Below are positions 17,448 to 21,894 of a DNA stretch of 23,278 nt, in pieces. The first letter of the stretch is position 1. Each line of letters begins with the position of its first letter. The DNA is from a virus (taxonomy: Duplodnaviria; Heunggongvirae; Uroviricota; Caudoviricetes), in IMG/VR virus record IMGVR_UViG_2718218100_000005; one strand, written 5' to 3'. The position numbers were made by a program, and so were the translations under genes. Below the pieces are notes generated by a model that was not told where the DNA came from, ran no database searches, and was given only the letters and a program-made list of their open reading frames with translations.

Positions 17448-17678
17448 TTAATGGAGTTTGTTTTGCTGCTGGATGAGCTGTTGAAACTCGTGCAGATCAT
17501 CCGCCAGATAGCTGAAAACAGAGGCGGAATAAATGTTTGATAGTGCGTGGCTGCGCTCATGCAGCATATTGATGTGCATGATTTGCGCGACGCGTGATGC
17601 GCGGGAAAGTCTGCGGTTGATTTCAGTCTGGATGTGACGACGCTCCGCGATAGCGCGGTGCTGTTTGCGGTCTGCCAT
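17448..17678 (-). CDS. hypothetical basic small protein
   Basis: 76-aa ORF with strong SD AAAGAGG 7 nt upstream; Arg/His-rich, possibly nucleic-acid binding. Confidence 0.5.
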   Translation of the reverse strand: MADRKQHRAIAERRHIQTEINRRLSRASRVAQIMHINMLHERSHALSNIYSASVFSYLADDLHEFQQLIQQQNKLH

Positions 17679-17857
17679 GGTGTGGCCTCTTTGCTCGGTG
17701 ATAGAAATAACTCACCATCCAGAGTTGAGAATCTCGGGGTGGCGAGACGTACAGGGTTCTCAACACCGGAGAGCAAAGAATCCGGCCCGACCGAAGTCGG
17801 CCCCGTACGCCCCGCCATAATTCTGACGCGAAAAAGACGTGGCAATACAGTACGCAC

Positions 17858-17878
17858 AAAAAAACCGCTAGCGCGGTT
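17858..17878 (-). terminator. candidate rho-independent terminator for the minus-strand early operon
   Basis: On the minus strand AACCGC-GCTA-GCGGTT hairpin followed by T7; short stem, so moderate confidence. Confidence 0.4.
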
Positions 17879-17950
17879 ATGCGCTTTGCTCTGTATCGGG
17901 TTGAGAATCCCGGCACCCGTTTTATGAGGTGCAGCGGAAATGTAACCTGA

Positions 17951-17979
17951 CCGATTGCGGCATGGCAAGCGGTTTTTTT
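17951..17979 (+). terminator. candidate plus-strand rho-independent terminator
   Basis: CCGATTGC-GGCATG-GCAAGCGG hairpin (one mismatch) followed by T7. Confidence 0.4.
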
Positions 17980-18000
17980 GTGTGTGCATGTTCTGGTTTC

Positions 18001-20320: not shown

Positions 20321-20524
20321 TTAGCTGTTAGCCAAAGCGTCTTTTAACATCGCCACAAGGTTTACTTCAGGCTTTTCCATTTTGGCGCGTTTGGGGCGGA
20401 TAATAATTCGACCGTCAGCCAACATCTTTTTGCATGTATTAAGAGGGATACCTGTTATCTCTGCATATTTCTGCAGGGATACATAGGGGGCATTCACATT
20501 GATATTGATGGTTATACCTGACAT
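20321..20524 (-). CDS. small HTH protein, Cox/Apl/excisionase-like
   Basis: 67-aa ORF with SD AGGAGG; YVSLQKYAEITGIPLNTCKKMLADGRI resembles excisionase-type HTH proteins; second gene of the lytic operon, divergent from the repressor. Confidence 0.5.
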   Translation of the reverse strand: MSGITININVNAPYVSLQKYAEITGIPLNTCKKMLADGRIIIRPKRAKMEKPEVNLVAMLKDALANS

Positions 20525-20540: not shown

Positions 20541-20747
20541 TCAGGAAGATTTGTTTTGTTCTTTCTGGGTTAGCTCTAGGCCGCGAAGGGAGATCATGCG
20601 CGCCATGTTAGAGGATGAGCGTTGTTCTTTAGCTGCCATTTCATCAATGACGGCTCGCTCCTCGAGGGACAGCCGAAGTGCCAGTCTTGGACCTGTGGCG
20701 GTGTTACGCGGAATGCGTGATCTGGTATCGTGAAGAACTTGTTTCAT
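20541..20747 (-). CDS. ribbon-helix-helix-like small DNA-binding protein, first gene of the lytic operon
   Basis: 68-aa ORF; RLALRLSLEERAVIDEMAAKEQRSSSNMARMI fits a beta-strand/helix/helix RHH pattern; weak SD, so start uncertain. Confidence 0.4.
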   Translation of the reverse strand: MKQVLHDTRSRIPRNTATGPRLALRLSLEERAVIDEMAAKEQRSSSNMARMISLRGLELTQKEQNKSS

Positions 20748-20784
20748 AGTGGTATATTGTGATCATCTAATAGCTCGTGAAATC

Positions 20785-20813
20785 ATTTTGGTATCAAAAA
20801 AGATACCTGTCAA
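20785..20813 (-). promoter_or_regulatory. candidate lytic (early) promoter: TTGACA -35 and CAAAAT -10 on the minus strand, 17-nt spacer
   Basis: Minus-strand TTGACA (plus coordinates 20808-20813), spacer containing the palindrome, -10 at 20785-20790; sits 30-60 nt upstream of the RHH ORF. Confidence 0.45.
20790..20807. promoter_or_regulatory. candidate operator: perfect inverted repeat GGTATC-AAAAAA-GATACC
   Basis: 6-bp arms separated by A6, located within the spacer of the candidate lytic promoter and 17 nt upstream of the repressor start codon. Confidence 0.5.
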
Positions 20814-20823
20814 GGGTTTTTGT

Positions 20824-21228
20824 ATGAAAAATGATATTGGTCGGCGGTTGCGTGAGGAAAGGGAAAGATTGGGACTTAGTCAAGTTGCCATGAGCGACAT
20901 TGGTGGAGTCAAAAAGCTAACTCAGCTTAGATATGAGAAAGGAGATAGCTTTCCTGATGCTGCGTATTTGGCAGCGCTGTCTCGTTTTGGCCTTGATGTT
21001 CAGTATGTTGTGTTGGGAATTCACTCACCTGAAACTTATAACGATGATGAGCAGGAATTGATTACTCGCTTTCGAGCAGCTTCGTTAGATGTGAAAAACG
21101 CGGTGATTGGGGCTTTAAAAGGTGCGATCAGTGAAAAGGAAACTCAGCCATCAGGACGTGAGTTAAATATTTCTGGTGGTAATAACCGTATCGCTGGTCG
21201 TGACTATAACGAAACTAAGGGTAGGTGA
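20824..21228 (+). CDS. XRE-family HTH repressor (P2 C / 186 CI analogue by position)
   Basis: Sub-ORF of 20749..21228 starting at MKNDIGRRL with RBS AAGGG; IGRRLREERERLGLSQVAMSDIGGVKKLTQLRYEKGDSFP is a canonical HTH_XRE domain; divergent from the lytic operon and upstream of integrase. Confidence 0.75.
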   Translation: MKNDIGRRLREERERLGLSQVAMSDIGGVKKLTQLRYEKGDSFPDAAYLAALSRFGLDVQYVVLGIHSPETYNDDEQELITRFRAASLDVKNAVIGALKGAISEKETQPSGRELNISGGNNRIAGRDYNETKGR

Positions 21229-21243: not shown

Positions 21244-21894
21244 ATGGCCGTCAACTCAAACGGTTCAAACAATCGCGTTGCTGGGCGTGATTTTCACGAA
21301 AAGAATATTCAGATAGAGCGATATGATGGTTCTCATACCGTCAATATCGCAATCCCTTCGAATAATGATGATGACGATCGCCCTTTGCTTAAGGCTCAGC
21401 GTAAGGAGCTAAATAGCTTGGTTGCTGCTATTGCAGAAGCTAGCAATACTGAAGCGTTTATTATTTGGCAAAAAGTACATGCGGAGATTGGTGTAGCTGG
21501 TATTGATGATATGACAGTAAATCAATATAAAACAGCGGAGAGTTTTCTGCATGCAATGCTTGAGCGATGTAAAGATCATGATGCCTGTAAGGCTCTTGTA
21601 AGTTTATTACTACGTAACAGTGAAGACTGTGGACTTCGACAAAAACTTCTGCGGTATTGCCATATCAATTTCGGTACAGGACGTTTAAACGATCTTACTC
21701 GTTCTCAGTTACAGTCTGCATTGTCGTGGTTAGAGCAACAATCGGCATCAAGCCACATAGAGAGTTCGACCTTACCAGAAGTCCGACTTCGTGCTTCAGA
21801 ATTAATCCGACTTTATCCAAAAGAAATAATATTCTTTATCTGCGTAGGGGTTTTGGTAGGCGGTGTCATTTCTAGGGCGTTTTTTAATTTGTAA
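21244..21894 (+). CDS. hypothetical protein with C-terminal transmembrane anchor (cargo gene downstream of repressor)
   Basis: 216-aa ORF with strong RBS GGGAGGTGA; N-terminal NNRVAGRDF motif echoing the repressor C-terminus; hydrophobic C-terminus EIIFFICVGVLVGGVI; AT-rich. Confidence 0.55.
   Translation: MAVNSNGSNNRVAGRDFHEKNIQIERYDGSHTVNIAIPSNNDDDDRPLLKAQRKELNSLVAAIAEASNTEAFIIWQKVHAEIGVAGIDDMTVNQYKTAESFLHAMLERCKDHDACKALVSLLLRNSEDCGLRQKLLRYCHINFGTGRLNDLTRSQLQSALSWLEQQSASSHIESSTLPEVRLRASELIRLYPKEIIFFICVGVLVGGVISRAFFNL

Follow-up and report, generated by a model that had tools for sequence, protein, structure and literature searches.

Organization of the switch region

The DNA analyzed here is a stretch of 23,278 nucleotides from IMG/VR record IMGVR_UViG_2718218100_000005 (the window). 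It is 100% identical to a prophage located beside yecA/tyrP in many Escherichia coli O157:H7 genomes and 96% identical to the Peduoviridae phage 520873 (genus Xuanwuvirus). Our subject is an 18-bp dyad in the intergenic region between the genes of a ribbon-helix-helix (RHH) protein and an XRE-type repressor. The prophage is the defective, P2-like Sp13 of E. coli O157:H7 (O157 Sakai), and the intergenic region lies in its switch; the same switch region is present in ~10% of complete E. coli genomes (524/5426). Sp13 was reported to excise and replicate spontaneously, ~30-fold more after mitomycin C, and to carry a repressor without a peptidase motif (PMC2669165).

The genes and features of the region are as follows.

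20321-20524, minus strand: Cox-like excisionase/repressor, 67 aa, early operon gene 2 (PHROG 575, E=1.2e-27)
20541-20747, minus strand: RHH (Arc-like) protein, 68 aa, early operon gene 1 (PHROG 3431 'Arc-like repressor', E=4e-27)
20738-20764: block CTTGTTTCATAGTGGTATATTGTGATC, conserved across classes; includes the start codon of RHH and the extended -10
20748-20823: intergenic region between the RHH and XRE open reading frames (ORFs), 76 bp, 33% GC
20750-20758, plus strand: extended -10 TGGTATATT (TG-G-TATATT) of the predicted repressor promoter Pc; estimated start ~20765
20790..20785, minus strand: -10 CAAAAT of the predicted early (lytic) promoter Pe; 10/12 match, 17-nt spacer, estimated start ~20778
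20790-20807, no strand: operator O1, predicted site of an XRE dimer; 18-bp dyad GGTATC-AAAAAA-GATACC, an exact palindrome
20813..20808, minus strand: -35 TTGACA of predicted Pe, found by promoter scan
20824-21228, plus strand: XRE-type immunity repressor, 134 aa (PHROG 8, E=2.6e-14; AlphaFold model; fold match)

A sequence-only reading of this DNA had described the region as a compact genetic switch, and all of its motifs, including the 76-bp region, TTGACA, CAAAAT and TGGTATATT, are present at the positions it gave. That reading placed the palindrome inside the 17-nt promoter spacer. The spacer is indeed wholly covered, but the dyad is 18 bp long and reaches the first base of the Pe -10 as well, a base that thus provides the operator with its outer G:C pair. 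On the other side, the last two bases of the Pe -35 overlap the Shine-Dalgarno sequence of the XRE gene (AAGGG, 20812-20816, plus strand). We also noticed a homopolymer length polymorphism at 20814-20822: GGG+T5 in the window, GG+T5 in most of the identical prophages, and GG+T6 or GG+T4 in some. It lies between the -35/Shine-Dalgarno element and the repressor start, and thus shifts the spacing from the Shine-Dalgarno sequence to the ATG by one base.

Judged within the window by itself, neither the palindrome nor the -35/-10 pair is significant. The window contains 126 perfect 6+6 inverted repeats (gaps of 0-12), which amounts to 0.41 expected per 76 bp, and promoter-like sites with at least 10/12 matches occur 6 times, as compared with 4.1 in shuffled sequences. 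The extended -10 (TGnTATAAT, at most one mismatch) is found twice, versus 9.6 times in composition-matched shuffles, and is therefore about five-fold rarer. As the motifs are unremarkable in the window alone, the case rests on conservation and covariation in relatives.

Conservation of the dyad in related phages

Protein-guided scans of viral contigs and genomes gave additional classes of the dyad. The scan of genome contigs with the repressor alignment yielded two loci only, while protein and pattern scans of viral contigs were far richer. The layout of an 18-bp dyad, TGTCAAG, ~10 nt and the XRE start codon recurs in enteric P2-like prophages, Hafnia, Methylomonas and the Mu-like phages BcepMu and Ps59. 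In L004, a 73%-identical E. coli relative, GGTGTG-GAAAAA-CACACC stands at the same position and the adjoining CTGTCAAGG is unchanged. Further classes are GGTATA..TATACC, GGTATT..AGTACC, GGTACG..AGTACC (Hafnia) and GGTACT..AGTATC (Methylomonas). Homologous repressors also accompany GGTATG..ATTACC in BcepMu and GGTGCC..TGCACC in Ps59.

The dyad changes in sequence and stays symmetric. In an ungapped alignment of 18 sites, 92.6% of the cells are symmetric, as compared with 82% after shuffling (reached in 0/500 shuffles) and 28-55% with one arm slid. Changes on both sides were found at 3/6 of the dyad position pairs.

The promoter elements around it are retained as well. In every relative, including Methylomonas, BcepMu and Ps59, [T/A][G/A]TCAA stands directly beside the dyad; it serves the minus-strand promoter as its -35 and also forms part of the repressor Shine-Dalgarno sequence. 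The -10 pattern CA[A/C/G]AAT is kept across the enteric classes. The block at 20738-20764 is nearly invariant across heteroimmune classes, and the stretch that follows it (20765-20784) is class-specific. As a separate observation, the flanks of this block diverge; the block probably functions as a promoter or regulator site common to the classes, and it serves as a recombination anchor.

A blind pattern scan with TGGT-N12-ACCTGTCAAG, which left half-site positions 4-6 and the spacer unconstrained, returned 120 viral loci, 64 of which have an XRE homologue just downstream. Full symmetry at the free positions 4-6 was observed in 20/31 distinct XRE-linked operators, as compared with 9/45 unlinked matches.

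One locus has an unusual arrangement. In the viral contig L049 (~2391-2500), the 3' terminus of a second repressor-like gene (…GHRIAGRDYNETKG*) directly precedes the repressor gene, and the operator is represented by its right half alone (GATACC-TGTCAAGG). This suggests a tandem duplication or a recombination within the dyad.

Residue 32 and natural exchanges of the probable operator and the repressor domain

In the recognition helix of XRE, residue 32 is leucine in the window (GVKK-L-TQL), and this residue tracks positions 4-5 of the half-site in the following way.

L32: AT in 15/16 half-sites
Q32: AC in 10/12 half-sites
R32: G and any base in 24/24 half-sites
T32: TC in 4/4 half-sites
K32: AA in 2/2 half-sites
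H32: AG in 2/2 half-sites
W32: GT in 2/2 half-sites

The mutual information between residue 32 and positions 4-5 is 2.04 bits, a value reached by 0/10000 permutations in statistics that ignore phylogenetic non-independence. At three out-of-sample loci (P0004, P0091 and P0086), a perfect 18-bp dyad adjoins the -35 in 3/3 cases and the residue rule was right in 2/3. P0004 (Q32) has GGTACG..CGTACC, which matches the rule, and P0091 (R32) has TGTGCA..TGCACA, with the predicted G at position 4.

Natural exchanges were found as well. L180 and L004 are ~100% identical from the Cox-like gene through RHH and the promoter block to the last base before the dyad, and identical again from repressor codon ~59 onward. 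Between these breakpoints, L180 has GGTACG..CGTACC together with VRKQAQ, and L004 has GGTGTG..CACACC together with VKKWTQ. The swapped cassette is exactly the operator plus the helix-turn-helix (HTH) domain, ~210 bp (L180 4205-4415 vs L004 2554-2764). A second recombinant, L193 (590-1087; protein P0004), joins a window-type RHH region and repressor C-terminal half to a Q32 HTH domain and a GGTAC operator. In both recombinants the RHH gene, the promoter block and the C-terminal half of the repressor are unchanged.

The divergent gene, on the other hand, varies. In 45 distinct contexts classified with phmmer, it encodes a Ner-like small HTH protein in 30, an RHH protein in 7 and another protein in 8; Pfam gave weak backing to the name 'Ner' (HTH_35, E=0.009, one member). 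The exchanges, together with a divergent gene that is mostly not RHH, indicate that the dyad goes with the XRE repressor, not with the RHH protein. Thus, the 18-bp dyad is very probably the operator of the XRE repressor, situated inside the predicted lytic promoter. As far as comparison of sequences can tell, its assignment to XRE is strongly supported by the symmetric double changes, the covariation with residue 32 and the joint exchange of operator and HTH domain.

The XRE repressor

The repressor has an HTH domain of five helices (residues 5-64) with the recognition helix at 31-39, further helices within 74-103, and a disordered tail with the motif NNRIAGRDYNE. In the AlphaFold model (mean pLDDT 74.5), helix 3 has residue 32 at its second position. 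By sequence, L32 aligns with V33 of the P22 c2 repressor, which we take to be a base-contacting residue in the c2-operator complex. L32 is probably the specificity residue of the repressor. The best fold match in the PDB is P22 c2 on its operator (3jxb, TM 0.83). A Pfam scan of the 134-aa protein gave no match to an S24 peptidase domain or any other peptidase; its C-terminal part consists of two helices and the disordered tail.

Homologues of the repressor are widespread in Enterobacterales and beyond. They fall into at least 213 protein clusters, all of which are named generically ('XRE family', 'helix-turn-helix'), and tblastn matches were obtained in the phages BcepMu, B3, Ps59 and KS10 (35-52% identity). 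Our literature searches brought up no description of an operator for this repressor family, nor is there one in the paper on the B3-family phage Fc02 (PMC9936078).

Possible further copies of the operator

The sequence-only reading saw a single copy of the operator. A search of the window and its relatives for further copies agrees with this as far as good copies are concerned. One weaker candidate overlaps the repressor start codon.

20821-20838, no strand: weak second site TGTATG-AAAAAT-GATATT, 13/18 identical to O1, over the XRE start codon

This site is spaced 31 bp, or three helical turns, from O1. Sites with at most four arm mismatches, as here, have a frequency of 0.002 per position in the window. 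Clear second sites were found at +31 to +33 in L057, L109, L122 and L184, and at -24, -77 or -84 in others; the control with shuffled flanks gave 1 match. No site at +31 is present in the L180 lineage. A class-level permutation test for the +31 site gave p=0.002, a value confounded by shared ancestry. Judging from these matches, 20821-20838 is a possible second operator.

Another look-alike, at 20435-20452 in the Cox-like gene, has two mismatches and lies 355 bp away, in a manner reminiscent of 186 FL. We rejected it as a second operator because it is not maintained in relatives that have the same operator: synonymous changes degrade it in L003 and L048, which share both operator and repressor with the window, and it is absent from the GGTGTG class. 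The look-alike derives from Gly-Ile-Pro codons. It belongs to a cluster of five weak operator-like 18-mers (2-4 arm mismatches) at 20435-20501. Sites with at most four arm mismatches number 47 in the window, 8 of them within 750 bp of the switch. Since the best site of the cluster is not conserved in close relatives, it is likely that these are coincidences of coding sequence.

Promoters and a model of the switch

The sequence-only reading called the layout divergent. This holds for the genes; the two predicted promoters, however, point toward each other, in the manner of P2 (Pe/Pc) and 186 (pR/pL). With the Pc -10 at 20753-20758, the estimated starts of Pc (~20765) and Pe (~20778) are ~13 bp apart, and the footprints of polymerase on the two promoters would therefore overlap. 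The -10 elements are 26 bp apart here, as compared with 49 bp in P2 and 76 bp in 186.

The proposal that the repressor occludes the lytic promoter gained support, in that the position of the dyad in the Pe spacer is kept across the whole family. This conserved placement makes occlusion of the early promoter the natural reading of the geometry. The extended -10 that had been suggested as the repressor promoter lies within the nearly invariant block and is a plausible predicted Pc.

Taken together, we consider it highly likely that the dyad is the operator of the 134-aa XRE repressor in the Sp13 switch region, working in the way outlined below. A repressor dimer with an HTH domain of the P22 c2/434 kind would read both half-sites, and L32, the second residue of the recognition helix, would specify A-T at half-site positions 4-5; the covariation is the observed part of this step. 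As the operator fills the spacer between the Pe -35 and -10, bound repressor would exclude RNA polymerase from Pe and silence the early operon, which consists of RHH, the Cox-like gene and the genes on to replication. By analogy with 186 and P2, shutting off Pe would relieve interference on the facing Pc. More speculatively, the operator lies ~25-43 nt into the predicted Pc transcript, so that bound repressor may also be a mild roadblock; either this or the look-alike over the start codon could damp repressor synthesis at high occupancy. Finally, as the repressor has no self-cleavage domain, induction would have to proceed through another factor.

We identified no binding site of the RHH or the Cox-like protein, no convincing class-specific repeat that could be an RHH site in the variable center of the intergenic region, and no LexA box near the switch or near a gene for a P4 epsilon-like 'derepression protein' (17448-17678, minus strand). 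The latter gene was proposed as the route by which mitomycin C induces Sp13 (PMC2669165). In the upstream stretch that we examined (17679-18000), there is a terminator-like hairpin (17878..17863) and there are promoter-like hexamers (17845..17817).

Alternative explanations

It is common for RHH proteins to bind their own promoters at short inverted repeats. The dyad might be such a site, by which the RHH protein, encoded first behind the promoter that contains the dyad, regulates itself, like Arc at Pant in P22. In line with this, the RHH beta-strand differs between immunity classes. The natural swaps contradict it: an identical RHH protein is found with GGTGTG..CACACC in L004 and with GGTACG..CGTACC in L180, and the operator thus follows the XRE HTH domain and not RHH. 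Moreover, L122 and L161 have near-identical RHH beta-strands and different operators, and 30/45 contexts of the family have no RHH protein at all, with the dyad still in the same place. We therefore regard this explanation as extremely unlikely, and the RHH protein probably does not bind O1. The inverted repeat could instead act at the RNA level, as a hairpin in the 5' leader of the repressor transcript that affects stability or translation. With a Pc start at ~20765, this transcript would include the repeat, ~17 nt ahead of the start codon; a stem would equally survive compensatory changes, and some asymmetric variants of the dyad are G-U compatible on the plus strand. Yet the stem is weak and missing from the minimum-free-energy fold of the leader (z-score -1.06, no better than shuffles), no Rfam family matches the region, the outer GGT/ACC is conserved as sequence beyond the needs of pairing, and the variable stem positions follow one amino acid of the recognition helix. 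A+T-rich centers that are not contacted are typical of 434 and P22 operators, and the spacer has on average 4.3/6 A+T in linked operators as compared with 3.4/6 in unlinked pattern matches. A hairpin is, in our view, a very unlikely explanation.

It is also conceivable that XRE binds the dyad mainly to regulate its own operon, for instance as a roadblock, and that the true early promoter is elsewhere. The dyad does lie within the predicted Pc transcript, and the Pe hexamers are consensus matches of a kind seen, as stated above, 6 times in the window against 4.1 by chance. Set against this, TTGAC[A/T] - 17 nt - CAnAAT (xAxxxT in distant phages) stands in exact register with the dyad across very distant phages, and Fc02, once its repressor is inactivated, starts its lytic transcript within the short gap between the repressor gene and ner (PMC9936078). 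This explanation seems improbable to us, although it deserves somewhat more weight than the preceding two. As for a chance palindrome without function, perfect 6+6 repeats are common enough in the window (0.41 expected per 76 bp) to raise the thought, but position, register and symmetry are conserved over dozens of lineages despite the changed sequence, which leaves it a negligible probability.

Several points nevertheless weigh against the dyad as the XRE operator of an occlusion switch, in addition to the phylogenetic non-independence mentioned above. Pe and Pc are consensus matches, within the window no commoner than chance, and the Pfam matches of the repressor (HTH_31, HTH_19 and HTH_3; E=4.5e-5 to 1.4e-3) are below the curated cut-offs. 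P0086 (T32) has TGCACT..AGTGCA and not the predicted GGTTC, with dyad and placement retained, and the BcepMu repressor (Q32) is paired with GGTAT/GGTAA. Furthermore, Fc02 lysogens transcribe the repressor mainly from a distal promoter; when a temperature-sensitive repressor is inactivated, transcription of the lytic operon sets in from the short stretch between the repressor gene and ner (PMC9936078). In view of the distal promoter, the proximal Pc of Sp13 may be secondary, or not the sole source of repressor mRNA.

A tail motif shared with the downstream membrane protein

The gene after the repressor encodes a membrane protein.

21244-21894, plus strand: tail-anchored membrane protein, 216 aa, with a C-terminal membrane helix (PHROG 5825, function unknown)

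One motif occurs both in the repressor, in its C-terminal tail (…NISGGNNRIAGRDYNE…), and in this protein, at its N-terminus (…NGSNNRVAGRDFHE…). In the window it reads NR[IV]AGRD[YF]xE, with NNRIAGRDYNE in the repressor and NNRVAGRDFHE in the membrane protein (DNA 21165-21228 and 21244-21320), and many synonymous differences separate one DNA copy from the other. The two proteins change their motif in step from lineage to lineage, and at least four types of it occur (lineages L004, L053-L067, L068, L070, L078, L094, L115, L133 and L162). For 35 non-redundant pairs, the local-alignment score averaged 37.1 with the true partner versus 23.8 with non-partners (0/5000 permutations). This suggests that the repressor may be physically or functionally coupled to the membrane protein. 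A search of the Pfam library with the 216-aa protein gave nothing significant; a homologue carries a precomputed Pfam match to PF27202 (Flk_N).

A broader proposal follows the same line and is tentative, rather doubtful in our own estimate. The operator, the repressor with its c2-like HTH domain and the tail-anchored membrane protein might travel between P2-like and Mu-like phages as a widespread, portable immunity cassette. Operator and HTH domain would be one specificity unit, residue 32 would largely set immunity, and a co-evolving membrane partner or decoy would tune or trigger the switch via the tail. If so, the cassette could account for the induction of a non-cleavable repressor.

Flanking genes and gene calls

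The remaining genes around the switch are the following.

22277 onward, plus strand: integrase, preceded by a DUF2511 protein, both 3' of the membrane protein gene
Beyond the Cox-like gene, minus strand: DUF4761, DUF4754 and more genes as far as the replication endonuclease

By its position, the RHH protein is the analogue of Cro or Ner, and its ORF is open and conserved throughout the enteric classes. In O157 genomes, RefSeq/PGAP annotates a 45-aa 'hypothetical protein' on the plus strand (20596-20733) and omits the RHH gene opposite; other records annotate RHH. The two frames have their third codon positions in common, and the BLOSUM score per residue is 1.93 for the 45-aa ORF as compared with 2.79 for RHH. 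We rejected the 45-aa ORF as a gene: RHH is the better call because the plus-strand ORF is less conserved and has no conserved start. Overlapping antisense genes opposite ner were described in Fc02 (PMC9936078).

Comparison with known switches

The Sp13 switch resembles those of P22 c2 and 434 in the five-helix HTH fold, in an 18-bp dyad with an A+T-rich center, in an operator that overlaps the predicted lytic promoter and in specificity set by the first residues of helix 3, despite a sequence identity of only ~25% between the repressors. It differs from P22, 434 and lambda in having one good operator, whereas these have three tandem sites with cooperative binding, and in a repressor with two C-terminal helices and a disordered tail motif in place of the S24 domain for RecA-stimulated self-cleavage. 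Moreover, the predicted promoters stand face-to-face, and those of lambda (PR and PRM) back-to-back.

With P2, a member of the same phage family, it shares a non-cleavable repressor that is encoded on the same strand as int and a Cox-like gene in the early operon. The predicted lytic and lysogenic promoters would converge like the annotated Pe and Pc of P2, whose transcripts overlap, with the lytic -35 adjoining the repressor start codon and the operator within the lytic promoter. However, P2 C binds direct repeats (O1 and O2) that flank the -10 (PMC2995052), while Sp13 has one inverted repeat in the spacer. The similarity of the Sp13 repressor to P2 C is of the generic HTH kind (33% over 46 aa). 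In P2, Cox comes first; here the RHH gene is first and the Cox-like gene second, and BLASTP found no similarity of the Cox-like protein to P2 Cox or 186 Apl.

Phage 186 has face-to-face promoters, as predicted here, inverted-repeat operators and a non-cleavable repressor; its pL is inhibited by the convergent pR and activated when CI represses pR. The repressor CI of 186 has a wheel-forming C-terminal domain. The window repressor showed no similarity to the HTH region of 186 CI. In 186, there are three CI sites at pR and further ones, FL and FR, at a distance; Sp13, by contrast, has a single operator, its sole distal look-alike (20435) is not conserved, and no CII homologue was identified.

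A further comparison is with transposable phages of the B3/BcepMu type. They have homologous repressors, the same order of dyad, TGTCAAG and start codon in BcepMu and Ps59, and a downstream membrane protein whose N-terminus matches the repressor tail. In KS10, the repressor homologue is present and the dyad/-35/Shine-Dalgarno layout is not. The first lytic gene of these phages is a Ner-like HTH gene, as opposed to RHH and Cox-like genes here, and they transpose and do not integrate. Fc02 RepC was shown genetically to be an immunity repressor, by a temperature-sensitive G64E mutant and by the immunity that the cloned gene confers (PMC9936078); its homology to the window repressor is assumed from membership of the B3 family, which it shares with B3 and Ps59.

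A survey of regulatory regions in P2-like phages distinguished a P2 type, a 186 type and heterogeneous 'less common' regions of foreign genes (PMC3448106). Going by sequence, the Sp13 switch is one of these 'less common' regions, with an immunity module shared with B3/BcepMu-type phages.

Significance

The design proposed here is classical; its novelty lies in a repressor family without an operator description in the literature that we found. As the mechanism is textbook, its value is in annotation, in the prediction of immunity groups and in a compact, orthogonal repressor/operator set, with no new principle involved. The covariation of the tail motif may be more novel than the operator.

For a repressor family so far annotated in generic terms, the results offer a concrete predicted operator and a one-residue specificity rule, and they place recombination breakpoints exactly at the edge of the operator and the end of the HTH domain. 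Within the P2-like phages, the Sp13 region would represent a third type of switch, built from a module common to transposable phages. Sp13 is inducible and mobilized in O157:H7 despite its non-cleavable repressor (PMC2669165), and knowledge of the operator and promoters makes this puzzle approachable.

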